This document shows positions 8,484 through 46,313 of a stretch of DNA of 64,000 bases, one piece after another. Source of the stretch: Chloroflexota bacterium (GTDB lineage Bacteria > Chloroflexota > Dehalococcoidia > DSTF01 > RBG-16-68-14). The stretch's first letter is position 1, and every line of letters starts with the position of its first letter. Both the position numbers and the translations under genes were made by a program. The notes beneath the pieces are model-generated. The model was not told the DNA's origin. It did not search any database and was given only the letters and a program-made list of their open reading frames with translations. Location: positions 16,578-80,577 of the forward strand of contig QIFC01000118.1 in NCBI GenBank assembly GCA_003228685.1, in the 5' to 3' direction.

Positions 8484-8918
8484 ATGACGCTAACCGACGA
8501 GAACAAGGAGCGCATGACGAAGGTCATCGCGATGACGCCGTACATGGTGCACCTGGGGATGGAACTGGTCGACGCCAGCGACAGCTACGCGAAGCTGAAG
8601 CTGCGCTACCAAGATGAGAACTCGACGGCCGCGAAGGCGCTCCACGGCGGCGCGATCGCGTCGCTGATCGACACCACGGGCGCGATGGCTGCGTGGACAA
8701 CGGCTGAGATCGCTACGCCGAAGTACTTCGGTTCCACGGTGGGCGTCACCGTAAACTACCTCTCCGCCGTCATCGGTCAGGACTGCTTCGCCGAGGGCAC
8801 CGTGCTCAAGCGTGGCAAAGAGGTGATCTACGCCGAGGTGAAGGTCACCAACGCGGACGGAAAGCTCTGCGCGCAGGGGACCGTCATCTATCGGATAATC
8901 GAACGGGAGCCGCGCTGA
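8484..8918 (+). CDS. PaaI-family hotdog-fold thioesterase
   Basis: 144 aa. ...ALHGGAIASLIDTTGAMAAW... and ...GKEVIYAEVKVTNADGKLCAQGTVIY... are typical of PaaI/YbgC-like thioesterases. Confidence 0.8.
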   Translation: MTLTDENKERMTKVIAMTPYMVHLGMELVDASDSYAKLKLRYQDENSTAAKALHGGAIASLIDTTGAMAAWTTAEIATPKYFGSTVGVTVNYLSAVIGQDCFAEGTVLKRGKEVIYAEVKVTNADGKLCAQGTVIYRIIEREPR

Positions 8919-9476
8919 TGGCCGCCGTCACGCCTATCGAAACGCCGGACTCTCCAGAACTGCGCGAGTTCTACGATCGCATCGAGGGCACAAGCCAAGG
9001 CATGGGCGTCCTGAATGTGTTCAAGACCATGGCTCACACGCCAGACCTGATGCGATCGTGGTGCGGCATGATGGCCGTGCTCCTCGGCAGCCTCAAGCTG
9101 GAGCCCACGTTGCGCGAGCTGGCCATCCTGCGGCTCTTTCAGGTGAAACGCAGCGACTACGGCTTCGCCCACCATGTGCGCATCGCCAAGCTGATCGGGG
9201 TCAGCGACGAGCAGATCGCCGCGCTGAGCAGCCACGCGGACAGCGACCTGTTCTCCGATCTTCAGAAGGAGGTGCTGACGTACACGGACGCGGTGACGCG
9301 GCTGGAGGACGGCTCGAAGGCGCTCGCCACTCGGCCTCAGGGAGCATCTCTCCGAGCAGGAGCTGGTGGAGCTAACGTTCGTCATCGCGAACTGGAACCT
9401 GATGGCGCACTTGCTGCTGCCGCTCGAAATCGAACTAGAGGAGCCGGCGAAGGAGTTCCTGCCGGCGGACTGGTAG
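8918..9476 (+). pseudogene. Carboxymuconolactone decarboxylase (CMD/AhpD-like) family gene with a +1 frameshift
   Basis: The N-terminal 135 aa (..LRELAILRLFQVKRSDYGFAHHVRIA..YTDAVTRLEDGSKALATR) are CMD-like in frame 2. The conserved C-terminus LREHLSEQELVELTFVIANWNLMAHLLLPLEIELEEPAKEFLPADW* is in frame 0 (stop 9474-9476). The shift maps to 9297-9340. Confidence 0.7.
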
Positions 9477-9484
9477 GGCATATG

Positions 9485-9520
9485 GTCACTCTGAGTTCGC
9501 CGAAGGCGGACGAAGAGTCT
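9485..9520. repeat. GIY-YIG-associated repeat unit (long form)
   Basis: GTCACTCTGAGTTCGCCGAAGGCGGACGAAGAGTCT. It is near-identical to 10273..10308 and is the reverse complement of the 26-nt units, with 10 extra nt. Confidence 0.75.
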
Positions 9521-9536
9521 CTCTTGAGGCGATTAC

Positions 9537-9827
9537 ATGCGCGAGTTCTATGTGTACATCATGGCCAATCGCAGCAAGACGCTATACGTCGGCATGACGA
9601 ACAACCTGGAACGACGCGTGTCTGAGCACAGAGCAGGGCTATCGGCGTTCACCGCGAAGTATGCGATGAAGAAGCTTGTGTACCATGAGGCAACCAATGA
9701 TCCCCGGTCGGCGATTGCTCGCGAGAAGGAATTCAAAGGATGGCTTCGGAGCAAGAAGATCGCGTTGATCGAATCGGCCAATCCCGAGTGGGACGATCTG
9801 AGCGAGGCATGGGGACTTCGGCGATGA
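9537..9827 (+). CDS. GIY-YIG nuclease family protein (small, 96 aa)
   Basis: MREFYVYIMANRSKTLYVGMTNNLERRVSEHR... contains the GIY-(x10)-YVG motif and a conserved Arg/Glu. GC is lower than in the neighbouring genes. Confidence 0.85.
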   Translation: MREFYVYIMANRSKTLYVGMTNNLERRVSEHRAGLSAFTAKYAMKKLVYHEATNDPRSAIAREKEFKGWLRSKKIALIESANPEWDDLSEAWGLRR

Positions 9828-9918
9828 AGACTCTTCGCGGAGTTTATCCTAAGCGAAGACGAAGGGCTCAGAGTGCTAGCCAGACGCGGAGAAGACTCTT
9901 CGCTTCGCTCAGAGTGAC
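9828..9918. repeat. GIY-YIG-associated repeat units (two short-form copies, one interrupted)
   Basis: AGACTCTTCGCGG...GCGAAGACGAAGGGCTCAGAGTGC (9828-9876) and AGACTCTTCGCTTCGCTCAGAGTGAC (9893-9918). Confidence 0.65.
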
Positions 9919-9947
9919 GAGGCGGGAGTGAGGCGATCAGCACCGAC

Positions 9948-10202
9948 ATGCGTGAGTTCTATGTGTACGTCATGGCGAATCGCAGCAAGACGCTATACGT
10001 CGGCATGACGAACAGCCTGGAACGACGCGTGGCTGAGCACAGAGCAGGGCTATCGGCGTTCACCGCGAAGTATGCGATGAAGAAGCTTGTGTACCATCAG
10101 GCAACCAATAATCCCCGGTCGGCGATTGCTCGCGAGAAGGAATTCAAAGGATGGCTTCGGAGCAAGAAGATCGCGTTGATCGAATCGGCCAATCCCGAGT
10201 GA
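9948..10202 (+). CDS. GIY-YIG nuclease family protein, second tandem copy, shortened by a TGG->TGA change
   Basis: High nucleotide identity by eye (only scattered substitutions) to 9537..9827, at a 411-bp offset. It ends ...ESANPE* where copy 1 reads ...ESANPEWDDLSEAWGLRR. Confidence 0.75.
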   Translation: MREFYVYVMANRSKTLYVGMTNSLERRVAEHRAGLSAFTAKYAMKKLVYHQATNNPRSAIAREKEFKGWLRSKKIALIESANPE

Positions 10203-10428: not shown

Positions 10429-11511
10429 ATGGAATTCGGACTGCTGTACGAAATCGAGAAGACCCAACCGTGGGACGAGAACAGCCAGCGCAATGTGTTC
10501 ATGGAGTCGCTGGAGCAGATCAAGCTGGCTGAAGAAGTCGGCTTCGATTACGTCTGGGAGGTCGAGCACCACTTTCTGGGCGAGTTCTCGATCTCGTCGG
10601 CGCCCGAGGTCTTCCTGTCAGCCGTCAGCCAGCACACCAAGACGATCCGCATCGGGCATGGCGTCGTCCTGCTGCCGTTCGGCTACAACCACCCGATCCG
10701 CGTCGCGGAGCGGGCGGCGACGCTCGATATTGTGAGCAACGGGCGGCTGGAGTTCGGCACGGGCCGCTCGGCGACAAACTTCGAGATGGAGCCGTTCGGC
10801 GTCGACCCGGAGTCGAACCGCGACGAGTGGGACGAGGCCGTGCGCATGATCCCGAAGATGTGGACGGAGGACGAGTTCTCGTGGGACAGCGAGAAGATGA
10901 AGATCCCGCCCCGCAACGTCTTCCCCAAGCCGCTGCAGAAGCCGCACCCGCCGATGTGGATGGCGGGCACGCAGCCGTCATCGGCGTTCCTCGCGGCCGA
11001 GCGCGGGCTGGGCTTTCTGCACTTCAGCTACACGGACCCCGAAGCGCTAGACGAGAAGATCACGAAGTACCGCGAGGGCATCGAGAAGAGCGAGCCCGTC
11101 GGCAGCTTCATCAACAACAAGTTCGCCGCCTTCACGCTGATGCACTGCGGACGCGACGACAAGGAGGCGCTGGCCACCGGCGGCCCCGGCGCGGAGTGGT
11201 ACGTGCGCGCGACGAACATGCTCTACTCGTTCTGGGCGCAGTCAGACACGCCGTCCTACAAGTGGTACGCGGAGCAGTTCGAGAAGGGCAAGGCAGGCGC
11301 GGACGTCAATGTGGAGCAGATGGTGGACGACTCGGTCCTCTGCATCGGCGGGCCGGAGCGCTGCGCTCAGATCGCGGGCCACTTCCGCGACCAGGGCGTC
11401 GACCAACTGATCTTCCTGGTGCAGCACGGCCCGACCAAGCACGAGGCGATCCTGGATTCGCTGCGCCGCTTCGGCGAAGAGGTGATCCCACAGTTCAAGA
11501 ACGGCGCGTAG
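10429..11511 (+). CDS. LLM-class (luciferase-like) flavin/F420-dependent oxidoreductase
   Basis: 360 aa. MEFGLLYEI..., ...AEEVGFDYVWEVEHHF..., ...IVSNGRLEFGTGRS... are luciferase-like monooxygenase family features. Confidence 0.85.
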   Translation: MEFGLLYEIEKTQPWDENSQRNVFMESLEQIKLAEEVGFDYVWEVEHHFLGEFSISSAPEVFLSAVSQHTKTIRIGHGVVLLPFGYNHPIRVAERAATLDIVSNGRLEFGTGRSATNFEMEPFGVDPESNRDEWDEAVRMIPKMWTEDEFSWDSEKMKIPPRNVFPKPLQKPHPPMWMAGTQPSSAFLAAERGLGFLHFSYTDPEALDEKITKYREGIEKSEPVGSFINNKFAAFTLMHCGRDDKEALATGGPGAEWYVRATNMLYSFWAQSDTPSYKWYAEQFEKGKAGADVNVEQMVDDSVLCIGGPERCAQIAGHFRDQGVDQLIFLVQHGPTKHEAILDSLRRFGEEVIPQFKNGA

Positions 11512-11513
11512 CG

Positions 11514-12344
11514 TTAGGCTCGCTGGGCCGTCAGCAGCGAGCGCCGCAGCAGGCCAGCCTTAATCGACGCGAGAATCACTTCGCCCTCTACGATCTTTCC
11601 CTTCAGTGTGTCCTCGCCCATCGCCTGCGCCAGCTCGTCGAAGCGGCGGCGCCTGCCTTCCAGCCAGCCTTGCGCGGTCATTCGATACTGCTTCGTCACG
11701 TCGGTCTCATGAACATCGGTGAAGCCTGCCGACTCCAGCATCTCCGACGGCGAGCGCCTGCGCGTTGTGGCGGACGGCCAGAACTTCAGAATGCGACGAT
11801 AATCGGCGTCGCTCAGGTCATGCGGCGCGTAGATCGTGTAGCAGGCGATGCGGCCTTCTGGCTTGAGAACTCGGTGACAGGCTCTCAGCACGGAGAGCTT
11901 CGCGGGCACTCAGCAGAGGACGTCGCTGTGCACCAGCGCATCGAACGAGCGCGGGCGGAACGGCAGGGTCGAGCCGCCCGCGGCGATACCTTCGCTCCTC
12001 TTGTGCACACGGTCCTTGCGCGAACGCCGCCCGGCCTCATCTAGCGCGACGAGCGGCAAGTCTGCGAGCACTACCTGGCAGCCGCTGCGCTTGGAGAGAT
12101 AGAGGCCGGGCCAACCTCGGCCGGCGCCGAGGTCGAGGAGCCGCTTACTCCGCGTCAGGTCCAGATGATCTACGAGCGCGTCCGCTTGTTCTCGCGTCGT
12201 ATAGCTGTTGGCGCCATAGTCGCCGCCAATCACTTCGCGTTCTAGGGCGACTGTCGCTCGGTTCTGACCAGTCCCGTAGCGTTCTTCGAAGCGCTGCTTG
12301 GCGTCAGCCGTTGAGCGAATATTGCTCTTGCGCGGCGACGCCAT
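11514..12344 (-). CDS. Class I SAM-dependent methyltransferase with in-frame TGA (candidate selenocysteine, Cys-Sec dyad)
   Basis: ORFs 11910..12344 and 11514..11909 share one frame and are separated only by TGA (11912..11910): ...LLDLGAGRGWPGL (motif I)...FDALVHSDVLC-TGA-VPAKLSVLRACHRVLKPEGRI (motif post-II/III). A hairpin starts 11 nt after the TGA. Confidence 0.55.
11879..11900 (-). promoter_or_regulatory. Candidate bacterial SECIS hairpin for the TGA at 11912..11910
   Basis: mRNA UGA GUGCCCGCGAA GCUCUC CGUGCU GAGAGC. A perfect 6-bp stem (11898-11893 pairs with 11886-11881) and a 6-nt loop containing GU. The loop G is about 21 nt from the U of UGA. Confidence 0.5.
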
Positions 12345-12348
12345 CCCG

Positions 12349-13131
12349 TCAGCCCTTCGTGGCGGCCAGTGTTACGCCGCGGGTGTCGAACTCCTTGGCG
12401 TCGGATTCATGCTTAGAGCCGGAAAACACGTCCACCTGCTTGCCCCAGCGAAGGCCTGTGAAGTTTGCGTGGCTCACAATCCACTCCCACTCTGCTTCCA
12501 GCAGAGCACCGGCTATTCAGCCGGACCAGAGATCGATGTCGTCTTTCGCGTCTTGGTCGACGGGCTTCTGAACGACGATGTCCGCGATCTGGAAGCGACC
12601 GCCCGGCTTGATGATGCGATAGACCTCTTGCATGACGGTCATCTTGTCCGGGGTGAGATTGATGACGCCGTTGCTGATCACGACGTCGATCGAACCATCA
12701 TCCGCGGGCAGTTCCTCCGCGTAGCCGAGCTTGGCGTCGATGTTGGTGAGGCCGAGCGTCTCAGCGCCCAGACGCGTCTTCTCCAGCATCGCCTCCGTCA
12801 TGTCGAGAGCGATCACGTGGCCCGTGGGACCGACCTGCTTCGCGGCTTGCAGCGTGTCGAAGCCTGCCCCGCAGCCGATGTCGAGCACTGCCTCGCCCTC
12901 ATGTAGCTTGCCCAAGAGGAACGGGTTGCCCGTGCCGGCGAACGATTCTATAGTCGACTCCGGCAGCGCATTCACGTCCGCCTCTGGATACTCCAGCATC
13001 GCTGCCAGCGGGCGGCCTGTGTGGAAATGAAAGCCTTGTTCGGGCTTCTTCGCCACGTCGCAGTATTTCGCCTCGATCTGGTCGCGCAGTTGTTCGCGGT
13101 CTACCTTCGATGCGACGACTTCTAACACCAT
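12349..13131 (-). CDS. ArsM-like SAM-dependent methyltransferase with in-frame TGA at the conserved C-terminal Cys position (candidate selenoprotein)
   Basis: Listed ORF 12517..13131 ends ...DDIDLWSG-TGA. The same frame continues IAGALLEAEWEWIVSHANFTGLRWGKQVDVFSGSKHESDAKEFDTRGVTLAATKG* (stop 12351..12349), 4 nt before the next gene's ATG. LDIGCGAGFD is motif I. LWxG[C/U]IAGA is the ArsM-type motif. Confidence 0.65.
12488..12508 (-). promoter_or_regulatory. Candidate bacterial SECIS hairpin for the TGA at 12519..12517
   Basis: mRNA UGA AUAGCCGG UG CUCUGCU GGA AGCAGAG UG. A 7-bp perfect stem (12506-12500 pairs with 12496-12490) plus two G.U pairs. The apical GG is about 20 nt from the U of UGA. 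Confidence 0.55.
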
Positions 13132-13151
13132 TCCTGTCTCCTTTCCTACTG

Positions 13152-14522
13152 TCAGACGGCCGGCGCGGACTCTTGCAGGTAGCCTGCTTCTTCCCAGACT
13201 CCGAACCCACCGTCCAGATTCACAAGCGTCTTGAACCCGGCACGCTCAAGGATCGAGACCCCGCTGGACGACCGCTCTCCATGTCCGCAGTATGCAACGA
13301 TGGGCCGGTCTCTCGGCAGCTCTTCGACTCGCGCCTCCAGTTGCCCGAGCGGAATGCTGATAGCCTCCGCGACGTGACCGGCCGCGAACTCATCAGGCTC
13401 GCGGACGTCGAGGGCAAGCGCGCCATCGAGCAGGGCCTTCCGCGCCTCCGTGGCACCGGCGAGCGGAATCGTCGCGAGAGGCTTGTCAGCCTTCGCCCAC
13501 GCTTCAATCCCACCCTCCAGCCAGCCCGCAAACGTTTCATAGCCCACCAGCAGCGACTCTTCCTCGATACGCTCGAGCGGTTCGTCATCACGGACGAACA
13601 GGAGCGGCGCCCCCTCGGGTGCAAGCCATCCCAGCCAGATGGCATAGCTATCGCGAAACTCGTTGCTCAGTGAGCCAGGAATGTGCCCGGCCGCGTACGC
13701 CTCGGTGGCCCGCACGTCGACAACAAACGCCGCTTGCCTGGCGTAATCGAACGCGACGGGCATGAGCGCCGGCGCCGGCGGAATCTCCTCGCGCAGTCGC
13801 GGACCAGCCTGGTTGATCGGGCGCATCCGAGAGAAGTAGGCCGGTATGGCTGGGAACGTGGTCGGGAACCAGCGCACAAACTCATGCTCGTCTTCAGTCT
13901 GCAGCGCGGCGTTGTGCTGGCGCTCGAGGCCCAGCGTGGAGGTGCGCTCGGCACCCGGCACCGCGGAACAGAACGAGCCGCCGCCGTGGGTCGGATAGAG
14001 CAGCGTCTCGTCCGGCAGCGACGAAAACGCCGTCTTCAGCGTGCGGAACAGCCAGTGTGTCTGGCGTTCGGTCATCTCGGGCGCTATCAGGTCGGTCCTT
14101 GCCGCGCCGCCGACGATGAGCGAGCCGCCGCTAAATAGTGCGGGAGGCTCCTGACCCGCGCGGAGAGCGTAGCTCATATGCTCAGGCGTATGACCGGGAG
14201 ACGCAACGGCTTCGACTTCGACGCCGCCCAGTCCGAACAGCTCACCGGCCACGACTGGCCTGTGCGGAAAGCGAACCGCTGCCTCCTTTGGAGAGTAGAT
14301 CTCCGCGCCCGAGACTTGCGCAACGTCGCGCGCGCCAGAGACGAAGTCGGCGTGCAGGTGCGTCTCCAGCACCGTCCCGATATGCCAGCCGCGATCTTCC
14401 GCGGCGCGCACATACTGGTCAACGCTCCGCAAAGGGTCGATGAGCACAGCTTCATTGGTCCCTACCACCATCAGGTAAGCGCTGTTGCCTAACCCTTCGT
14501 GGACAAAAGGAATCACATTCAT
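13152..14522 (-). CDS. MBL-fold metallo-hydrolase (persulfide-dioxygenase-like) fused to two rhodanese domains
   Basis: The N-terminal ...TVLETHLHADFVSGA... is the HxHxD(H) MBL motif. The C-terminal rhodanese has active-site loop IVAYCGHGERSS. The middle rhodanese-like domain lacks the Cys. Architecture resembles Blh/CstB. Confidence 0.85.
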   Translation of the reverse strand: MNVIPFVHEGLGNSAYLMVVGTNEAVLIDPLRSVDQYVRAAEDRGWHIGTVLETHLHADFVSGARDVAQVSGAEIYSPKEAAVRFPHRPVVAGELFGLGGVEVEAVASPGHTPEHMSYALRAGQEPPALFSGGSLIVGGAARTDLIAPEMTERQTHWLFRTLKTAFSSLPDETLLYPTHGGGSFCSAVPGAERTSTLGLERQHNAALQTEDEHEFVRWFPTTFPAIPAYFSRMRPINQAGPRLREEIPPAPALMPVAFDYARQAAFVVDVRATEAYAAGHIPGSLSNEFRDSYAIWLGWLAPEGAPLLFVRDDEPLERIEEESLLVGYETFAGWLEGGIEAWAKADKPLATIPLAGATEARKALLDGALALDVREPDEFAAGHVAEAISIPLGQLEARVEELPRDRPIVAYCGHGERSSSGVSILERAGFKTLVNLDGGFGVWEEAGYLQESAPAV

Positions 14523-15787
14523 GCCAATACCTCCTTCTGCATCGGCGCTGCTGCCGGGCGTGCCCGGCCCAGTGTCACCGTTGCTATGATAGCCGACGCG
14601 GCAGTCAGCGCCGCAACCGCATAGATCGCTTGCTCAAAGCCCAGCAGGTCGGCCACGGCTCCCGCGCCGAGCGCCCCGGCGACGAACCCACCATCACGCC
14701 AAAAGCGATAGACGCCGACGGACGCGGCGCGCTCTTCAGGGTGCACTTCATCGCCGATAGCGGCGATCAGCGTTGGGTAGACGAGCGCGGTCCCCACGCC
14801 GAGCAACACGACCGCCACCAGCCAGCTACCGAACGAGCCGGCGATCGCGACCATCGCGATGGCGACGGCCTGCAGCAGCAGGCCACCAACAATAGCAGGC
14901 TTTCGTCCCACAATGTCGCTCGCCCAGCCGGTACCGAGCTGCAGGACGCCCCAGACGAAGGGATACGCGGCTGCCAGGATGCCGATCTGACCGAGGTCCA
15001 GTCCGCGACTGAAGAAGAACAGCGGAAGGATCCCCCAAGCCAGCCCGTCGTTGAGGTTATTCACGAAGCCCCCTTGCGACGCGCCGAACAAGCGCGGGTT
15101 GCGCCATGTGACGTCGGCAAAGCTTCGCGCAAGCGAACGCGGAGGCGGCCCGGCCGCGTGTCCATCCGCCTCCAGTGCGACGAAGGGCCGCGTGTCGTGT
15201 GCCAGAGCCGTGAGCGCCAGCCCGCCCGCGACGAGAGCGATCCCCAGGTAGAACGGCTCTGGCCGCAGTCCGTACTGCTCCGCGATCACGCCGGTGAGAT
15301 AGGCAGCGGCAGCAACAGCGACATAGCCGGCCGCTTCGTTCAGCCCAACCACGAATCCACGCTGCCTGGGGCCGGCCAGGTCCATTTTCATATTGACGGT
15401 CATGGACCAGGCGAGGCCTTGGTTTACGCCAAGCAGCAAATTCGCGCCGATCACCCAGCCCCAATTCGGCGCCCAGATGAGCATCAGGGGAACAGGGGCG
15501 CCCACGAGCCATCCGGCAATCAGGACCTTGCGCCTGGTCAACTTATCGGAGAGGGTGCCGGCGAAGAGGTTGGTGATTGCCTTGGCGAGCCCGAACGTCG
15601 CGATGAACGAGACGACGGCCGTCGTCGACGAGATGCCGAACTCGGCCTTGCCCAAGAGCGGAACGACAGAGCGCTCCATGCCGATCATGCCGCCGACGAA
15701 GGCGTTGACCGCCACCAGCAGCGCGATCTGCCGCCAGTTTTCGCGCACGCCGAGGGCGATCGATTTGCCTGTCTGTCGCACGGCCAT
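14519..15787 (-). CDS. MFS transporter
   Basis: 422 aa, about 12 predicted hydrophobic helices, with an MFS loop motif ...GTLSDKLTRRKV.... Its stop overlaps the start of the downstream MBL-rhodanese gene (ATGA). Confidence 0.85.
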   Translation of the reverse strand: MAVRQTGKSIALGVRENWRQIALLVAVNAFVGGMIGMERSVVPLLGKAEFGISSTTAVVSFIATFGLAKAITNLFAGTLSDKLTRRKVLIAGWLVGAPVPLMLIWAPNWGWVIGANLLLGVNQGLAWSMTVNMKMDLAGPRQRGFVVGLNEAAGYVAVAAAAYLTGVIAEQYGLRPEPFYLGIALVAGGLALTALAHDTRPFVALEADGHAAGPPPRSLARSFADVTWRNPRLFGASQGGFVNNLNDGLAWGILPLFFFSRGLDLGQIGILAAAYPFVWGVLQLGTGWASDIVGRKPAIVGGLLLQAVAIAMVAIAGSFGSWLVAVVLLGVGTALVYPTLIAAIGDEVHPEERAASVGVYRFWRDGGFVAGALGAGAVADLLGFEQAIYAVAALTAASAIIATVTLGRARPAAAPMQKEVLA

Positions 15788-15802
15788 CAGCCCCGCCCTC
15801 TG

Positions 15803-16318
15803 TTAGGCGGCCTGCTCTTCGGCGGAACCGAACACCGTCCGGAGCGCCAGTTCGCGGTCACCGAAACAGTACTGGTAGATGAATGACGGGATGCAGAAGT
15901 GGGTGGTGCCAACAATGTATGCCACTGTCGTGAGCAGCGCCCCGAGCGCGTAACCCAGCGGAGCAACGCCCAGGTCGAACGACAACGCGATCGCGACTAC
16001 CCAGGGCGTTGCCAGCACACAAGCGAAGCGCGTAGGCGGACCGTTTAGCGGCAGTTTTCCCGTGCCGGTCAGGTGGCGCAGCCCATAGTTGTAGACGAGA
16101 TCGAGGGGATGGACCCTGAAGATCGCACCGGCTGCCGCTATCGGGACCATCGCCCAGAGCAGCGGTGTGAACGCGAATGCCGTCGCGATGCCGACGAGTG
16201 AACCGCAGAGAAGAAACGTCGTCCTGAACCAGGGCACCATCCTCAGGAATCCGGGATCGCTCGAAACGTTGTAACCCCGCACCTCCAGCCACGTTTGCAG
16301 TCTTGGTGAAAGAGCCAT
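15803..16318 (-). CDS. DUF4395-like membrane protein
   Basis: 171 aa, four hydrophobic segments. ...PTRFACVLATPWVVAI... and ...HFCIPSFIYQYCFG... resemble the DUF4395 family from memory. First gene of the minus-strand operon. Confidence 0.6.
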   Translation of the reverse strand: MALSPRLQTWLEVRGYNVSSDPGFLRMVPWFRTTFLLCGSLVGIATAFAFTPLLWAMVPIAAAGAIFRVHPLDLVYNYGLRHLTGTGKLPLNGPPTRFACVLATPWVVAIALSFDLGVAPLGYALGALLTTVAYIVGTTHFCIPSFIYQYCFGDRELALRTVFGSAEEQAA

Positions 16319-16336
16319 GATTCGGTCTCCTCTTTT

Positions 16337-16358
16337 TATTCAAGCGTTCTATTGAATA
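16337..16358. promoter_or_regulatory. Candidate ArsR operator in divergent promoter
   Basis: Perfect inverted repeat TATTCAA-N8-TTGAATA in the AT-rich 125-bp intergenic region. The half-site core TTCAAGCG recurs near 16396. Confidence 0.35.
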
Positions 16359-16443
16359 CGCCCATACTACTCCGTTGAGAGTGGCCTGTCAAATGTTCAA
16401 GCGATATCTTGCAGAATAATTTCCAAGGCTCTATACTGGCCGT

Positions 16444-17115
16444 ATGGCGCATCGAGAGTTCAAGCAGAAGATCTACGCGGAATTCGCCCGCATCGGGAAC
16501 GCGCTTGGCAGCGCGCGACGGCTGGAACTGCTGGACATCCTCGCCCAAGGACCGCGCCACGTAGAGGCGCTCGCTGCCGAGACCGATATGACGGTCGCGA
16601 ACGTCTCGCAGCATCTGCAGGTCTTGCGGCAGGCCCGCCTTGTAGAGGCGGAACGCGAGGGCACGAAGGCGCTCTACCGCCTCGCCGACAGGCACGTTCT
16701 CGATCTGTGGCTCACGCTGCGGTCGGTCGCGGAAGAACGCCTCGCCGACCTCGGCCAACTCCGGCGCGACGTCGACGTCTACGATGAGGAGTCGCCGGTG
16801 CCGAGGGACGAGCTAGAGCGACTGCTCTTGGACCGGGACGCGGTGCTGATCGACACTCGCCCGAGCCGTGAGTACGAGCACGGCCATCTTCCGGCGTCGA
16901 TCTCGATGCCCATGGAAGAGCTGCCAGAGCGGCTCCACGAGCTGCCGAGAGACCGGCCGATCATCGCCTACTGTCGTGGCGACTACTGTCTCTTCGCGGA
17001 CGAGGCCGTCACGCTCCTGCGCGAGAAGGGCTTCGAGGCCCACCGCCTAGACGGCGGCTGGCCGGAGTGGTGGGCGGAAGACCGGGCGGTCGTGGGTGAT
17101 CCCGAGATAACCTGA
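16444..17115 (+). CDS. ArsR/SmtB-family transcriptional regulator fused to a rhodanese domain
   Basis: The N-terminal ...LGSARRLELLDILAQGPRHVEALAAETDMTVANVSQHLQVLRQARLVEAEREG... is an ArsR wHTH. The C-terminal rhodanese has IIAYCRGDYCLFADEA. Confidence 0.85.
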   Translation: MAHREFKQKIYAEFARIGNALGSARRLELLDILAQGPRHVEALAAETDMTVANVSQHLQVLRQARLVEAEREGTKALYRLADRHVLDLWLTLRSVAEERLADLGQLRRDVDVYDEESPVPRDELERLLLDRDAVLIDTRPSREYEHGHLPASISMPMEELPERLHELPRDRPIIAYCRGDYCLFADEAVTLLREKGFEAHRLDGGWPEWWAEDRAVVGDPEIT

Positions 17116-17513
17116 TGGCAAAGTTCAGCATCATTACGATTGCAGCGGTGGTTGTGGCAGGCATCGTTGGCATGATCGTCTTGATGGCATTGATGATGGG
17201 CAGCATGATGGGGGGCGCCGGCAGCGATCCCTCGGGCGAGACGCCCGCCGTTGGCGTCACGGAGGTCCGGCTGGAGGACTTCGCCTTCGCGCCCGCGAAC
17301 ATCGTGATCGACGCCGGCACGACGGTCACCTGGACCAACAAGGATAACGTCGCCCACACAGTGACGAGCGACGACGGCGACGAACTCGAGAGCGAATACT
17401 TCGGCCGGGACGGCACGTTCCGCCATACGTTCGACACGCCGGGCGAATGCCGCTACAATTGCGAGCCACACCCGAACATGCACGGTCGCGTGACTGCGCG
17501 GCCTTTGTCGTAA
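17115..17513 (+). CDS. Cupredoxin (plastocyanin/amicyanin-like blue copper protein), membrane anchored
   Basis: N-terminal TM helix, then ...TVTWTNKDNVAHTVTSDDG...CEPHPNMHG with H...C..H....M type-1 Cu ligands. Its start overlaps the ArsR stop (TGATG). Confidence 0.8.
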   Translation: MAKFSIITIAAVVVAGIVGMIVLMALMMGSMMGGAGSDPSGETPAVGVTEVRLEDFAFAPANIVIDAGTTVTWTNKDNVAHTVTSDDGDELESEYFGRDGTFRHTFDTPGECRYNCEPHPNMHGRVTARPLS

Positions 17514-17608
17514 TCGCGCGCAGGAGTCAGTTTGACTCGGGCTTACGAACAGGAGTGGCCGGCCGAATGGGGGTAGTAATCCAAGCGCGATCACGGTAAC
17601 CTCCTCAT

Positions 17609-18400
17609 ATGGCGCAAGCATCACCAATCGAGTGGACCGAGGCGACCTGGAATCCGATTACCGGCTGCACCAAGGTCAGCCCGGGCTGTGCGCACTGTTA
17701 TGCGGAGACGTTCGCTGAGCGGTTTCGTGGCGTCCCCGGCCATCCCTATGAGCGGGGCTTCGATCTGCAGCTGCGGCCTGAACGGCTAGAGCAGCCACTC
17801 TCGTGGCGCAAGCCTCGGGTGATCTTCGTCAACTCGATGAGCGACCTCTTTCATGAGGACATCCCTGAGGCATACATCAGCTCAGTTTTCGACGTCATGG
17901 AGCGCGCGAGTTGGCACACGTTTCAGGTATTGACGAAGCGCTCCGAACGGCTCGCTGACATGGCTAGCCGGCTGGCTTGGCCGGACAACGTCTGGATGGG
18001 CGTCTCAGTCGAGAACCAACGCTGGACATCGAGGATCGATCACCTGCGACAGACGCCGGCCAGCGTACGCTTCCTATCTTGCGAGCCGCTGCTCGGACCG
18101 CTGGAGTTCGACCTAACCAGGATCGACTGGGTGATCGTCGGTGGCGAGAGCGGCCATCGAGCACGGCGAATGCGGCCTGAGTGGGTTCGCGCGATCCGCG
18201 CTCAGTGCCGGACACAGAATGTCGCATTCTTCTTTAAGCAATGGGGAGCTCACAACGAGGCCGGCAAGCGCGTGGGCAAAGGCAGAGCTGGGCGGGAGTT
18301 GGACGGTGGAACGTGGAATCAGAAGCCTATATCCCTAGCTCCTTCTGTCCTCCAGAAATCAGACCGAGGACGTAGCCGCGCTCGAACACATAGCGCATGA
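17609..18400 (+). CDS. Phage Gp37/Gp68 family protein (DUF5131)
   Basis: MAQASPIEWTEATWNPITGCTKVSPGCAHCYAE... (Cys-x6-Cys-x2-Cys), ...VFVNSMSDLFHE..., ...FLSCEPLLGPL..., ...VIVGGESG... and ...FFFKQWG... are all characteristic of this family. Confidence 0.8.
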   Translation: MAQASPIEWTEATWNPITGCTKVSPGCAHCYAETFAERFRGVPGHPYERGFDLQLRPERLEQPLSWRKPRVIFVNSMSDLFHEDIPEAYISSVFDVMERASWHTFQVLTKRSERLADMASRLAWPDNVWMGVSVENQRWTSRIDHLRQTPASVRFLSCEPLLGPLEFDLTRIDWVIVGGESGHRARRMRPEWVRAIRAQCRTQNVAFFFKQWGAHNEAGKRVGKGRAGRELDGGTWNQKPISLAPSVLQKSDRGRSRARTHSA

Positions 18401-19241
18401 TCTTGTCACCTGTATCGTCATCCGTGGCAAACACCAGGTGGTAGCGCTCCTGACGGCCTTGGGTCGGTGTGGGCGGCGCCAGGACGGGCTTGGTGAAAAC
18501 GTGACGGTATCCCAACTGATCTAGCCCATCCTTATACAGCTCCAGATAGTCACTCTTGGCTTCCGCCGGTGTCAGCTGACCACTAAGACGGCGTTCGTAG
18601 ATCGCTTGCCAGCGACTGTTGCCGAACGTTCGGTTGTGACGTTCCATCGCTCCCAGCTCCAGTGGCCCTCCAGTCGGGAACTGTCGAACAATGCTCATCT
18701 CCAGCGGGAACAGTATGAGAAGCTCAGGCTTCTTCCTACGCGCAGGGGTTCTTGCGATTTCAGAGATCGTGTTCCAGTGCAGTTCTGCTGCTTCAGGGTC
18801 AAGAAGACAGAAGCAGGGAGCCCTTTCAGGTACGGTCTCGCGAATTAGAGCCGGTAAGTCTCGATTAACATCGCCACGTCGGACAGTCACGCGATCCCCG
18901 AACGGCTCGGCCCTTTGTCGTAGAGTCGCCTCTTCTCGCTCCCCCATTTCCATGAAGACACGGTGCTGTAGGCCGGGCGTGTTCAGCGCGATTAGAGGCG
19001 AACCCAAGACAAACCGCGGCTCCACTTGCGCGTTTCTCACTTCGCACAAGCCGGGACCTGCCAGACCATCGACGTAAAAGCCGCCTCCAGCCTTCTTGCA
19101 TGCATCTGCGAAGCCACGGATGTAGAGAAGCAGCACCGCTAACTTCTCAAGCGTCCAGGGTCCTATCGATCTCGTGAGGAGACCATCGTCTTCGGCCCCT
19201 AGCTCCGCCAGTATCTCTTCTGAGGTAGTCCGCCGTGCCAA
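18327..19241 (-). CDS. Three-Cys-motif partner protein (TcmP-like)
   Basis: 304 aa. ...WTLEKLAVLLLYIRGF...GGGFYVDGLAGPGL...CFCLLDPEAAELHWNTI... resembles the TcmP family from memory. That family is habitually adjacent to Gp37/Gp68 genes. Confidence 0.6.
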   Translation of the reverse strand: MARRTTSEEILAELGAEDDGLLTRSIGPWTLEKLAVLLLYIRGFADACKKAGGGFYVDGLAGPGLCEVRNAQVEPRFVLGSPLIALNTPGLQHRVFMEMGEREEATLRQRAEPFGDRVTVRRGDVNRDLPALIRETVPERAPCFCLLDPEAAELHWNTISEIARTPARRKKPELLILFPLEMSIVRQFPTGGPLELGAMERHNRTFGNSRWQAIYERRLSGQLTPAEAKSDYLELYKDGLDQLGYRHVFTKPVLAPPTPTQGRQERYHLVFATDDDTGDKIMRYVFERGYVLGLISGGQKELGI

Positions 19242-19253
19242 AAAACTCCTAGC

Positions 19254-20396
19254 CTACCACTGCACCACCATGGGCATCAGCACGTGGACGAAGTCTTCTT
19301 CGCTGACGGGGCGGAGGACGCCCTGCCGGGAGGGGCCGCTCATCTCCAGCGAGACGCGGCCTCCCTCCAACACCTGCAGGTAGTCCTGCAAGTACTTGCT
19401 GTTGAACGCGATTTTGTCCGCTTCGCCTTCGATCGCGGCATCAATCTCACCGAGATTGTCGCCGATCTCCTCGGCACGGGCGGAGATGGTCATCTTGCCG
19501 GGCGCCACGTCCTCGCCCGGCGTGAACGTCAGGCGCACGATGCCACTGCCGTCGCGGGCGAAGATTGCTGCCGTGCGCGTCTCGCGCAGGAACTCGGCGA
19601 CGTCGATAACGGCCTTGCTCGTGTGGTCTTCCGGGATGATCTGGCTATAGTCCGGGAAGGTCCCCTGGATCAGTTGTGTCACCAATTCGACGTTCTTCAG
19701 CCGGAACAGCACCTGCGTCTTCGTGGAGTTGACTGAGAGTTGCACGGGATCCGACTCATCCGGCAGCAGCCTGCTCAGCTCGACGAGCGCGCGCGCCGGG
19801 ATGATGAGCTGGACCGCTTCGGAGACAGATTCCCCTAGCGTGAGGTGGCGGACCGACAAACGGAAGCCGTCCGTGGCGGCGAGCGTGAGCTGATCGCCCT
19901 CGATCGCGCAGTTCACGCCCACCAGCACAGGGCGCGAATCGTCGGTCGCGGCGGAGATCGCCACTTGTGAGATCGCCTTCTGCAGATCTTCCGGATCGAG
20001 CTGTAGCGACACACCATCTTCAACGCTCGGAATCGGGGGGAAGTCATCGGCGTCAACACCGCTCATCGTCGCCTGGCTGCGGCCGCAGACCAACTTGAGC
20101 TGGCGCGAACGCGGCGCCACCGTCATCTCGATCTTCTCGTTGGGCAGCGAGTTGACGAAGTCGGTCAGCAAGCGGGCTGGAACCGTAATGGCGCCCTCTT
20201 CTTCAACCTGAGCGCCGATCCAAGAGCTGAGGGCGATCTCCAGGTTCGTAGCCGCGAGCTTCAGGCGGCCATCTTCGGTGGAAAGGAGGACGTTTGCCGT
20301 AATCGGTAGCGTACTGCGAGCGGCAACGGCCCTGCCCACGATGCCGAGTCCTTTAGCGAGGTTTTCTTGCAGACAAGAGACGTTCATATTGTTCAC
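19254..20396 (-). CDS. dnaN: DNA polymerase III beta sliding clamp
   Basis: 380 aa. ...LQENLAKGLGIVGRAVAARSTLPITANVLLSTEDGRLKLAATNLEIA... and the C-terminal ...VLMPMVVQW are typical DnaN. Confidence 0.93.
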   Translation of the reverse strand: MNNMNVSCLQENLAKGLGIVGRAVAARSTLPITANVLLSTEDGRLKLAATNLEIALSSWIGAQVEEEGAITVPARLLTDFVNSLPNEKIEMTVAPRSRQLKLVCGRSQATMSGVDADDFPPIPSVEDGVSLQLDPEDLQKAISQVAISAATDDSRPVLVGVNCAIEGDQLTLAATDGFRLSVRHLTLGESVSEAVQLIIPARALVELSRLLPDESDPVQLSVNSTKTQVLFRLKNVELVTQLIQGTFPDYSQIIPEDHTSKAVIDVAEFLRETRTAAIFARDGSGIVRLTFTPGEDVAPGKMTISARAEEIGDNLGEIDAAIEGEADKIAFNSKYLQDYLQVLEGGRVSLEMSGPSRQGVLRPVSEEDFVHVLMPMVVQW

Positions 20397-43526: not shown

Positions 43527-44273
43527 ATGAGCAGAGAGCGCAGACGAAAAGGGAGTACACGTAAGCGGCGAAGGTCGGCCGCATTGTCCAGCGGGCGCGG
43601 CCGGTCGATTCCAACGGCGCCGGTCGTGGCCGCAGCCGGCGTGGTGGCAGTTGCAGCCCTTATCGGCTACCTGATTTGGCAAGTAACAAACGAGCCATTA
43701 AGCGGCCTCGTCAAAGCCGCGGAGGTCGAGCGCGACCCGGCACCCGACCTGCCCGGCGAGCATGTCAACCTGCCAGAACTCTACGCGGATGAACGCGGCC
43801 CGGCCACCTACCGCTCCAACGGCAGTGTCCCGAACACCGCCAAGCACGTCGCGGCAGACGTGGACTATGAAGCCGCTGGCAACTCTAACCCACCCGCTGG
43901 CGGCCCGATGTGGAGCGGCGACTGTGGGAGAGACGCAGAGTCTTCGCCTGATGTCTGCGGGCCGGCCCCCTGGGGCGTCTTCCGCACGCCTTGGAGGCCA
44001 GAGACGCTGAACCACAACATGGAGCACGGCGGGGTGGTTATCTGGTACAACACGGCCGACCAGGAGATCATCGACGACCTGGAGGACTTCGTCGAAGACC
44101 TCTTCCCGGTCGTCCTCACGCCGTATCCGGATATGGAAGACGAATACGTTGCCGTCACCACATGGGGACGCATCGACAAATTCCCGGTGAGCGAGTACAC
44201 CCGAGAGCGCCTTGAGGAGTTCAACGACGCGCACAACTGCCACTTCAGACCGGAGGGCATGTCGGACTGCTAG
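43527..44273 (+). CDS. DUF3105 domain membrane-anchored protein (paralogue 1)
   Basis: Arg/Lys-rich N-terminus, one TM helix, then ...HNMEHGGVVIWYNT... and conserved Cys pairs. Confidence 0.8.
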   Translation: MSRERRRKGSTRKRRRSAALSSGRGRSIPTAPVVAAAGVVAVAALIGYLIWQVTNEPLSGLVKAAEVERDPAPDLPGEHVNLPELYADERGPATYRSNGSVPNTAKHVAADVDYEAAGNSNPPAGGPMWSGDCGRDAESSPDVCGPAPWGVFRTPWRPETLNHNMEHGGVVIWYNTADQEIIDDLEDFVEDLFPVVLTPYPDMEDEYVAVTTWGRIDKFPVSEYTRERLEEFNDAHNCHFRPEGMSDC

Positions 44274-44517: not shown

Positions 44518-45255
44518 ATGAGCAGAGAGAAGAGACGGCGAGGCAGCACACGGAGCCGGCGGACGCCGGCCGCATCGCCCGGTGGGAGCGGCCCGTCGAT
44601 TCCGACCATACCTATCGTCATCGCGGTAGGCGTAATTGCCGTTGTCGCTCTGATTGGCTTTCTGATCTGGCAGAACGGCAAAGAGGCGAGTCCGGCCAAC
44701 GCGAGTGCTGCCGCGCACGAACGAGACCCGGCGCCTGATAAGGCTGGTGAGCACGTCAACTTGCCCGAGATCTACCAGGATGAACGCGGGCTGGCCAGTT
44801 ACTCAGGTGGCGATGTACCCAACACAGCACCACATGTCAACGAGGTCGTCGACTACAGCGACCAAGGGCTGCCGCCCGCAGGCGGGCCCCACTGGTCCGG
44901 CGGCTGTGGGGACGACCCCGTGGAGGCACCGCAGTTCTGCGGCCCGGCGCCCTGGGGCATTTACCGGGAGCCATGGGTAGCGTCCACGTTGATCCATAAT
45001 ATGGAGCATGGTGGCACGGTCATTTGGTACAACACGACCGATCAAGAGGTTATCGACGACCTCGAGGATTTCGTCAGCGGCAACAGCGACAAGTTGTTAG
45101 TGCTGGCTCCCTACCCGGAGATGGAAGAGGAACAGGTAGCGATCACCGTCTGGGCTCGCCGCGGCCTGATCCCTGCTGGCGAATACTCGCGAGAGTTTAT
45201 CGACGACTTCATGGATGACTGGTACTGCGAGTTCGACCCCGAGGGCTTCTGCTAA
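44518..45255 (+). CDS. DUF3105 domain membrane-anchored protein (paralogue 2)
   Basis: Same architecture as paralogue 1. ...HNMEHGGTVIWYNTTDQEVIDDLEDFV.... Confidence 0.8.
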   Translation: MSREKRRRGSTRSRRTPAASPGGSGPSIPTIPIVIAVGVIAVVALIGFLIWQNGKEASPANASAAAHERDPAPDKAGEHVNLPEIYQDERGLASYSGGDVPNTAPHVNEVVDYSDQGLPPAGGPHWSGGCGDDPVEAPQFCGPAPWGIYREPWVASTLIHNMEHGGTVIWYNTTDQEVIDDLEDFVSGNSDKLLVLAPYPEMEEEQVAITVWARRGLIPAGEYSREFIDDFMDDWYCEFDPEGFC

Positions 45256-45608: not shown

Positions 45609-46313
45609 ATGGGCAGACGCAGACGCCGAACAGGAAGCGACTGGAGCAGCAAGGCGGGCGGCGGGCCGAGCATTCCGACGGTACCGTTGGTGATCGTCAT
45701 CGGCGTCGCCGTCGTCGCCGGCCTCGTGGCCTACTTGGTCTGGCAGCAGGGCCAGGGAGGAGGCGACGGTCCCGGCGACTACGCCCGCATCGAAGGAGAC
45801 ATGCCCACGGACAAGCCGGGGGAACATGTCGATCTACAAGGCATCTACGACGGCTTCTATGGCAACCGGAATGGCAACAACACGGAGCCTCACGTAACTG
45901 GCAAGGTGGACTTTTCTGAGCAAGGCCTGCCGCCGGCCGGCGGTCCCATGTGGGGCGGCGGCTGTGGGAGAGACGCAGAGTCTTCGCCTGCTGTCTGCGG
46001 GCCGGCCCCGTGGGGCATCTTCCGCACGCCTTGGAGGCCGGAGACGCTGAACCACAACATGGAGGCCGGCGGTACCGTCATCTGGTACAACACGACCGAT
46101 CAGGACGTCGTCGGCGACCTCGAGGATTTCGTCGGCGATAACAGCGATAAACTATTGGTGCTGGCTCCCTACCCGGAGATGGAAGAGGAACGAATAGCTA
46201 TCACCGTCTGGGCTCACCGCGACAAGTTTCCTGTGAGCGTGTACAGCCGGTCCCGGCTTGAAGACTTCATGGATGCCTTCTACTGCAAGTTCGATCCCGA
46301 AGGCAACTGTTAA
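45609..46313 (+). CDS. DUF3105 domain membrane-anchored protein (paralogue 3)
   Basis: Same architecture as paralogue 1. ...HNMEAGGTVIWYNTTDQDVVGDLEDFV.... Confidence 0.8.
   Translation: MGRRRRRTGSDWSSKAGGGPSIPTVPLVIVIGVAVVAGLVAYLVWQQGQGGGDGPGDYARIEGDMPTDKPGEHVDLQGIYDGFYGNRNGNNTEPHVTGKVDFSEQGLPPAGGPMWGGGCGRDAESSPAVCGPAPWGIFRTPWRPETLNHNMEAGGTVIWYNTTDQDVVGDLEDFVGDNSDKLLVLAPYPEMEEERIAITVWAHRDKFPVSVYSRSRLEDFMDAFYCKFDPEGNC

Follow-up and report, generated by a model that had tools for sequence, protein, structure and literature searches.

The locus described here lies at positions 11514-17513 of a 64-kb stretch of contig QIFC01000118.1 from a bacterium of the Chloroflexota (class Dehalococcoidia; the window in the following, 64% GC overall) and consists of seven genes arranged around a divergent control region (Table 1). 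Leftward, a gene for a small DUF4395 membrane protein is followed by genes for a transporter of the major facilitator superfamily (MFS), for a CstB-like enzyme composed of a metallo-beta-lactamase (MBL) fold and two rhodanese domains, and for two S-adenosylmethionine (SAM)-dependent methyltransferases, MT1 and MT2, each of which is predicted to contain one selenocysteine (Sec). Rightward, a regulator, in which an ArsR-type winged helix-turn-helix (wHTH) domain is fused to a rhodanese domain, is followed by a membrane-anchored cupredoxin. A check of the seven reading frames and their junctions by sequence reading and Pfam reproduced exactly the gene set and coordinates of a first-pass annotation of this DNA, including the ATGA overlap by which the CstB-like and MFS genes are translationally coupled, the TGATG overlap at the regulator/cupredoxin junction, the 4-nt gap between MT1 and MT2 and the AAGGAG ribosome-binding site 8 nt upstream of MT1. 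With only a 4-nt gap or a TGATG overlap between them, the genes at these two junctions should be co-transcribed.

Table 1. Genes and predicted control elements of the locus (positions refer to the 64-kb window).
Feature	Position	Strand	Description
MT2	11514-12344	-	276-aa class I SAM methyltransferase, predicted Sec at residue 145 (HSDVLCU); passes Pfam methyltransferase thresholds
UGA (Sec) codon of MT2	11910-11912	-	TGA read in frame, Cys in homologues
SECIS-type hairpin of MT2 (predicted)	11881-11898	-	GCUCUC-CGUGCU-GAGAGC, 11 nt past UGA
MT1	12349-13131	-	260-aa ArsM-fold SAM methyltransferase, single predicted Sec at residue 205 (WSGUIAGAL); Pfam Methyltransf_31 114 bits
UGA (Sec) codon of MT1	12517-12519	-	TGC or TGA in orthologues
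SECIS-type hairpin of MT1 (predicted)	12489-12507	-	GCUCUGC(U)-loop-(A)GCAGAGU, 9 nt past UGA
CstB-like enzyme, MBL fold and two rhodanese domains	13152-14522	-	Pfam Lactamase_B and two rhodanese stretches; loop YCGHGERS
MFS transporter	14519-15787	-	Pfam MFS_1 146 bits
DUF4395 small membrane protein	15803-16318	-	leads the leftward operon; Pfam DUF4395 45 bits
Divergent control region	16319-16443	.	125 bp, 43% GC
Operator 1 (predicted)	16339-16356	.	TTCAA-N8-TTGAA, perfect; just downstream of leftward -10
Operator 2 (predicted)	16396-16413	.	TTCAA-N8-TTGCA, 1 mismatch; abuts leftward -35, overlaps the regulator's own -35 region
ArsR-type wHTH fused to rhodanese	16444-17115	+	Pfam HTH_5 and Rhodanese; YCRGDYC
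Membrane-anchored type-1 copper protein (cupredoxin)	17115-17513	+	Pfam Copper-bind 41.7 bits

The ArsR-rhodanese regulator, two TCAA-N8-TTGA operators and the DUF4395, MFS and MBL/double-rhodanese genes form a conserved divergent unit, in which MT1 is often included. Scanning genomes with the MBL-rhodanese protein as query returned 80 loci, and all seven window proteins were mapped onto these and onto those found with the regulator, MT1 or MT2 as query. The core, in which the regulator gene is divergent from (DUF4395)-MFS-MBL/double rhodanese, was found with its gene order in 17 further distinct loci, mostly from Chloroflexota/Dehalococcoidia and one from Actinophytocola; all related loci of sufficient length contain the MFS gene, and most of the related loci contain DUF4395. 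MT1 lies inside or beside the core in 7 of 13 loci found without a methyltransferase query and takes three different positions within the operon across loci. Furthermore, the regulator stands beside three of four MT1 homologues that had been chosen only for their long contigs (L128, L129 and L130). None of the 13 loci that the MBL or regulator queries had returned contains MT2, which was seen again in three others: in L086 it directly follows the ArsR-rhodanese gene, MT1 being divergent there, in L087 it follows a gene of the same MFS family, and in L089 it comes after MT1. In L086, MT1, MT2 and the regulator thus occur together once more. Of the combination that the first-pass annotation had taken for a single system, the regulator, DUF4395, MFS, MBL-rhodanese and MT1 genes are thus recurrent partners, whereas MT2 is sporadic and the cupredoxin was found in no other locus.

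Several of the related loci carry additional genes. A TusA-DsrE pair is located directly ahead of MT1 in L008 (6577-7374), L010 and L128 (6336-6973), and SQR-like flavoproteins were found in L006/7, L009, L125 and L128. A small DUF1059 gene heads the operon in L008 and L012 (897-1064 in the latter), and in L012 MT1 is preceded by the gene of a further methyltransferase, a third and unrelated one (1374-2207). Neither arsB, acr3, arsC nor arsH was present in any locus examined, and genes of selenium metabolism of the selD or ygfK/yqeB type were found neither in the window nor in the examined loci.

Two apparent associations were rejected. In L094 the ArsR gene adjacent to MT2 lacks a rhodanese domain and is paired with an SRPBCC-like gene, so that this locus does not count as a link between MT2 and the regulator. 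A luciferase-like monooxygenase gene is located beside MT2 in the window (10429-11511) and after the regulator in L123/L124 (7713-8582), which is probably a coincidence, as the identity is 26% and the window gene is convergent on MT2.

The control region contains the repeat TATTCAA-N8-TTGAATA exactly at 16337-16358. The first-pass annotation had described this perfect repeat correctly together with a second half-site, but the latter is in fact a second, imperfect palindrome (TTCAAGCGATATCTTGCA, 16396-16413). A search for TTCAA-N8-TTGAA with at most one mismatch gave two matches in 64 kb, both of them within the 125-bp region, with 0.44 expected for the whole window, and an examination of 12 related promoters showed the TCAA-N8-TTGA core at the corresponding site ahead of the regulator gene in nearly every case, the distant L086 among them, L016 being an exception. 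This recurrence in relatives, in combination with the restriction to the control region in the window, argues for the palindrome as a conserved operator. A promoter scan revealed a leftward promoter-like sequence between the two operators (TTGACA at 16392-16387, a spacer of 17 nt and TAGTAT at 16369-16364), and a rightward TATACT was recognized at 16431-16436 by sequence reading. As this element ends only 7 nt before the ATG of the regulator, the arrangement suggests that the regulator mRNA is near-leaderless, and it also suggests autoregulation.

The regulator is a member of the ArsR/SmtB wHTH proteins (75.8 bits against a subfamily cut-off of 55 in NCBIfam) and scores 36.8 bits with the BigR model, which has a cut-off of 155. 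Its only cysteines, C177 and C182, are located in the active-site loop of the rhodanese domain (YCRGDYC), and residues 1-105 are free of Cys, which holds also for 87 of 125 family members. In 124 diverse representatives of the family C177 is conserved in 96% and C182 in 88% (YCRGxYC), and there is no conserved Cys in the HTH domain. An SmtB-like alpha-5 metal site was considered on sequence reading and rejected, because its D-x-H is not conserved in orthologues and the site is incomplete. BigR and SqrR are persulfide sensors in which a Cys pair within the ArsR core forms a polysulfide bridge. The BigR/Blh system of Xylella and Agrobacterium and SqrR of Rhodobacter resemble the locus in their ArsR wHTH and in palindromic operators within a promoter that controls an MBL/rhodanese enzyme, but the regulator described here has no Cys pair in the ArsR core, and its conserved cysteines form a C-x4-C motif in the fused rhodanese domain.

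The closest solved relative of the DNA-binding domain is 2kko/3gw2 (72.5 bits, residues 7-100), a wHTH fragment described as a possible ArsR-family regulator, which we take to be Mb0332 of M. bovis and Rv0324 of M. tuberculosis and whose full protein presumably has a C-terminal rhodanese domain. It is conceivable that the family reaches into Mycobacterium. For Mb0332/Rv0324 the literature describes neither a ligand nor an operator nor a connection to sulfur; only network-level studies are available for Rv0324 (e.g., PMC4916473), and our literature search returned no paper that names it together with rhodanese and none that characterises an ArsR-rhodanese sensor. The fusion of regulator and rhodanese, whose pairing with selenoenzyme methyltransferases the first-pass annotation had held to be undescribed, is widespread in sequence databases, with 4,492 clusters when clustering at 90% identity (E up to 1e-10) and 320 clusters when clustering at 50% identity (E up to 1e-30). 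With a conserved operator, regulon and C-x4-C loop, such a putative new design of a persulfide sensor would be directly testable.

The CstB-like enzyme can be aligned over its full length to PDB entries 3tp9 (2.5e-77) and 3r2u (4.9e-52), the second of which we assume to be CstB. Both His motifs are retained (HxHxDF and PGHTPEH), and the rhodanese loop YCGHGERS as well as the Cys of GSFC are invariant in the clade. The MFS protein matches none of the arsenical-efflux families in NCBIfam. A search of the literature for the function of DUF4395 found nothing relevant; the first gene of the operon in L129 (3073-3852) encodes a DUF4395-rhodanese fusion, a hint that DUF4395 may take part in sulfur transfer at the membrane side. 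The cupredoxin passes the Copper-bind threshold (41.7 bits against 21.2), has a hydrophobic N-terminus and carries the ligand motifs C-E-P-H-P-N-M and AHTV. It aligns to amicyanin and to the cupredoxin domains of nitrite reductases with the His, Cys, His and Met ligands present, and it was seen in the window only, with no homologue in any related locus.

The reading frames of MT2 and MT1 both continue across a single in-frame TGA and then give a full-length product. In MT2 the predicted residue U145 aligns with the second Cys of DVLCC, which is invariant among 26 full-length homologues, as are C89 and C144. A metagenome scan with MT2 provided 36 related loci, and among those covering the site most have TGA at exactly the same codon. 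The hairpin downstream of it, resembling a selenocysteine insertion sequence (SECIS), forms all six stem pairs in 18 of 18 distinct Sec forms, the window's included, and in none of seven distinct Cys forms, although the same K-L-S/A-V-L-R peptide is encoded there. At the Sec codon of MT1, the orthologues within the same operon show TGC in the case of L008-L011 and L086, and TGA in that of L012, L013 and L089. The MT1 hairpin stem is common to the window, L012 and L013 with a varying loop and is missing from the five Cys forms; the TGA form of L089 has a different hairpin. Of the 120 database homologues closest to MT1, 93 carry Cys, and another 26 break off precisely after ...IDLWSG, as is typical of Sec genes that have been miscalled. 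In single-sequence folding neither of the post-UGA hairpins was more stable than shuffled sequence (z of -0.8 and -0.7), and the hairpin evidence is therefore comparative. The alignment with a conserved Cys and the confinement of the hairpins to TGA forms decide in favour of Sec codons and against inactivating mutations, a possibility that the first-pass annotation had still considered, and on this comparative basis we regard both methyltransferases as true selenoproteins.

The first-pass annotation had labelled MT1 as ArsM-type, and arsenite methyltransferases share fold and sequence family with it, but the label does not fit its cysteines. In comparison with the solved ArsM structures 5evj and 4fr0, C72 is replaced by Thr, C174 by Gly and C224 by Sec (CmArsM numbering). 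The same Thr and Gly are found in 120 of 120 of the closest homologues, so that of the three arsenic-binding positions only that of C224 is kept, either as Cys or as Sec. MT1 also stays below the cut-off of the arsenite methyltransferase family NF008823 (214 bits against 263) and of the Sec-ArsM fusion families (207-220 bits against 460-575). A Sec-containing ArsM family with the motif UxxG is already listed among selenoproteins (PMC13188914), and MT1 resembles it in having U-I-A-G at the C224 position together with a putative SECIS hairpin; MT1-type genes, in contrast, are found in sulfur-relay operons and not in ars operons. Such genes are annotated as arsenite methyltransferase or match arsM models, yet they lack the arsenic-binding cysteines, and environmental arsM counts may therefore overestimate arsenic methylation in Chloroflexota.

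MT2 resembles small-molecule methyltransferases of the MitM/PMT type and reaches the cut-off of no NCBIfam family, the best score being 64.7 bits against 155 for DVU_1556, with 28.7 against 380 for MduS. Its C-U pair would be located in the substrate-pocket segment after strand 4, 3-4 residues beyond the position of ArsM C174. It falls outside the listed methyltransferase selenoprotein families (MduS, UXPK-star, ArsM fusions and DVU_1556), and the selenoprotein tables of PMC13188914 and PMC9312934 contain no CU-motif methyltransferase. The sequence comparisons thus give good support to MT2 as a selenoprotein family that is absent from the curated lists checked, with a nearly invariant predicted SECIS and a common occurrence in marine contigs. 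On two of these, L095 (6267-7928) and L110 (3972-5633), a 553-aa triple-rhodanese protein is encoded directly upstream of the Sec form of MT2.

Taken together, we hold it to be somewhat more probable than an even chance that the locus senses and disposes of reactive sulfur, i.e., sulfane sulfur or persulfide, in analogy to cst and BigR/Blh and with different parts, and the methylation branch is probably part of it. As its relatives add TusA, DsrE and SQR-like genes, the theme appears to be sulfane sulfur and not metalloids; for metalloid or selenium handling, both of which the first-pass annotation had also suggested, nothing specific was found. In the mechanism that we propose, a dimer of the repressor would occupy two operators, one just downstream of the leftward promoter and the other over the regulator's own promoter. 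Cys177 in the rhodanese loop would be persulfidated and Cys182 would resolve the persulfide to a di- or polysulfide, by which the repressor is released; the sensing thiol pair would thus reside in the fused rhodanese domain, unlike that in the ArsR core of BigR/SqrR. Derepression would lead to synthesis of the CstB-like sulfurtransferase enzyme, while the MFS pump and DUF4395 may move a sulfur product across the membrane and the two methyltransferases could provide a second outlet. In this outlet the single selenol of MT1, at the C224 position of ArsM, might take over a sulfane sulfur delivered by carriers of the rhodanese, TusA or DsrE type, which MT1 would then methylate; alternatively, MT1 might methylate H2S or a thiol directly, and either way a volatile methyl-sulfur product would result. 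MT2, with a Cys-Sec pair and a third invariant Cys in a MitM/PMT-like substrate pocket, could act on a related soft nucleophile. The cupredoxin may be an addition specific to this genome, placed where relatives have an SQR-like flavoprotein.

The closest known counterpart is the cst operon of S. aureus (CstR, CstA, CstB, SQR and a TauE-type exporter), with which the locus has in common an enzyme of MBL and two rhodanese domains, a membrane exporter, a repressor that is presumably thiol-based and, in relatives, SQR-like genes beside the module. It differs from cst in its regulator, which is an ArsR-rhodanese protein and not a CsoR-like CstR, in having MFS and DUF4395 proteins instead of TauE, in the methyltransferases within the operon and in the clade-wide Gly at the position of an iron-ligand Asp, which is considered below. 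For the methylation branch, soluble SAM-dependent methyltransferases acting on H2S and methanethiol have been described in bacteria, Chloroflexota included (MddH and MddM1/2; PMC11445057, PMC12904073), and MddM homologues occur in this phylum (PMC12904073). Like MddH, MddM1/MddM2 and MddA, which have been proposed or shown to detoxify reduced sulfur, MT1 and MT2 are SAM methyltransferases. Compared by size and description, however, MddH and MddM have about 205 aa and MddA is a membrane protein, and none of these enzymes has been reported with a catalytic Cys/Sec or in this gene context. If MT1 and MT2 methylate reduced sulfur, they would be an addition to the short list of enzymes (MddA, MddH and MddM) behind microbial methanethiol and dimethylsulfide.

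Several observations weigh against a reactive-sulfur function of the locus. The three invariant cysteines of MT2 would suit a metalloid too, most MT2 genes are unlinked to the module, and Cys homologues of MT2 on three long contigs stand in unrelated contexts. In the close relative L126 (6694-8777, compared with 12349-20396 of the window; dnaN 85% identical, Sec form) MT1 stands alone directly after dnaN, which means that the ArsR-rhodanese module, the cupredoxin and a DUF5131 gene pair are present or absent as a segment between dnaN and MT1. ARAGORN found no tRNA, and hence no tRNA-Sec, in the window and the Rfam scan gave no match, including none to a SECIS family, so that no Sec machinery was seen there. 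A further point concerns the MBL domain. A 2-His-1-Asp iron site defines persulfide dioxygenases, and the Asp is a metal ligand in glyoxalase II too. The site corresponds presumably to H79, H135 and D154 in ETHE1, with the Asp as the third ligand. In the CstB-like enzyme and throughout the Chloroflexota/Actinomycetota clade the Asp of [ST]GD is changed to Gly ([ST]GG), with the other motifs invariant (window, L006-L018, L023, L026, L028, L050, L058, L079 and L122-L125); the homologues of Verrucomicrobia/Planctomycetes keep the Asp as TGD. Since this ligand is missing, the oxidative half of the analogy to cst may not hold, and it may be asked what chemistry is performed by a whole clade of CstB-like enzymes in which the canonical iron-ligand Asp is missing. 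The persulfide module of Blh/CstB type that the first-pass annotation had recognized therefore stands with regard to its architecture, with MBL and rhodanese domains and the catalytic Cys, but not with regard to the iron ligand, and with 36 bits the enzyme also misses the cut-off of 625 of the Blh family NF040641.

A more far-reaching idea, to which we give only tentative credence, combines two proposals: the regulator would represent a new class of persulfide sensors based on rhodanese-loop cysteines, and MT1, sometimes together with MT2, would constitute an undescribed route from protein-bound sulfane sulfur or selenium to a volatile methyl-chalcogen. In this route TusA, DsrE or a rhodanese would deliver the sulfur or selenium to an enzyme of the ArsM fold, where a lone selenol or thiol would receive it for methylation. 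If this is true, many of the arsM genes counted in Chloroflexota would be sulfur or selenium methyltransferases, and MT2 would represent a selenoprotein family that is new and predominantly marine. The design of the sensor, the reassignment of an arsM clade, the unlisted selenoprotein family and the CstB-like clade without canonical Asp are four candidate novelties that can be tested separately.

Other explanations fit the locus less well than the handling of reactive sulfur. One of them is that only the core of regulator, DUF4395, MFS and MBL/rhodanese genes is functional and that MT2, the cupredoxin and possibly MT1 are unrelated neighbours which share its transcripts. The absence of both MT2 and the cupredoxin from all 13 independently found loci is in line with this assumption, as are the unrelated contexts of the MT2 Cys homologues, the isolated MT1 of L126 and the variable segment between dnaN and MT1. 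We nevertheless consider it unlikely, because the tight junctions imply co-transcription, MT1 occupies three different places in the operon in different loci, and MT2 is again linked with the regulator in L086, with the same MFS family in L087 and with MT1 in L089.

It also seems improbable that the system is dedicated to selenium, with a rhodanese loop that senses perselenide or selenide, a two-step methylation that volatilises selenium and the MFS protein as exporter. Two tandem methyltransferases would suit mono- and then di-methylation, marine MT2 genes adjoin the triple-rhodanese protein, and established chemistry allows in principle that selenium is handled by cysteines of the rhodanese type and by methyltransferases that have the ArsM fold or act on thiols. 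However, a catalytic Sec says nothing about the substrate, the accessory TusA, DsrE and SQR-like proteins are classic parts of sulfur oxidation and sulfur relay, and the genes of the selD and ygfK/yqeB type are missing from the window and the loci examined.

Even less can be said for an unusual ars-type operon, in which the ArsR protein and the ArsM-like methyltransferase would be accompanied by MFS efflux of methylated As, Sb or Te and by rhodanese reductases, and we regard this as very unlikely. The best named matches of MT1 are indeed arsenite methyltransferases, the regulator is from the ArsR/SmtB family, and three invariant cysteines, one of them replaced by Sec, are what one would look for in a soft-metalloid site of MT2. 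This explanation is weakened by the loss of the equivalents of C72 and C174 in MT1 (120 of 120 homologues), by the Cys-free DNA-binding domain of the regulator with an alpha-5 metal site neither complete nor conserved, by both rhodanese loops, which on sequence reading are of the 6-residue sulfurtransferase type and not of the C-X5-R reductase type, and by the lack of arsB, acr3, arsC and arsH in any locus; furthermore, the MFS protein lies outside the arsenical-efflux families of NCBIfam. Finally, the view that both TGAs are nonsense mutations which leave an ordinary sulfide locus could appeal to the truncation of both proteins by gene callers (204-aa database entries), but it is effectively refuted by the comparative evidence, as each TGA is located exactly at a conserved Cys position, the frames are open and conserved to the normal C-terminus, the same TGA occurs in many independent lineages and the hairpin goes with the TGA and is missing from the Cys forms.

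Beyond the locus, the window shows some further features. The DUF5131 gene (phage Gp37/Gp68-like, 362 bits, 17609-18400) overlaps tail-to-tail with a 304-aa open reading frame without Pfam match (18327-19241), and this pair is located between the cupredoxin gene and dnaN. Two tandem GIY-YIG open reading frames with near-identical N-termini (9537-9827 and 9948-10202) are part of the region 8918-10202, where the first of them overlaps the atypical C-terminal tail of a CMD/AhpD-like open reading frame (8918-9625), as though an insertion had disrupted the end of this gene. In addition, three tandem paralogous open reading frames (43527-44273, 44518-45255 and 45609-46313) encode proteins with Arg-rich N-termini that are followed by a hydrophobic segment.

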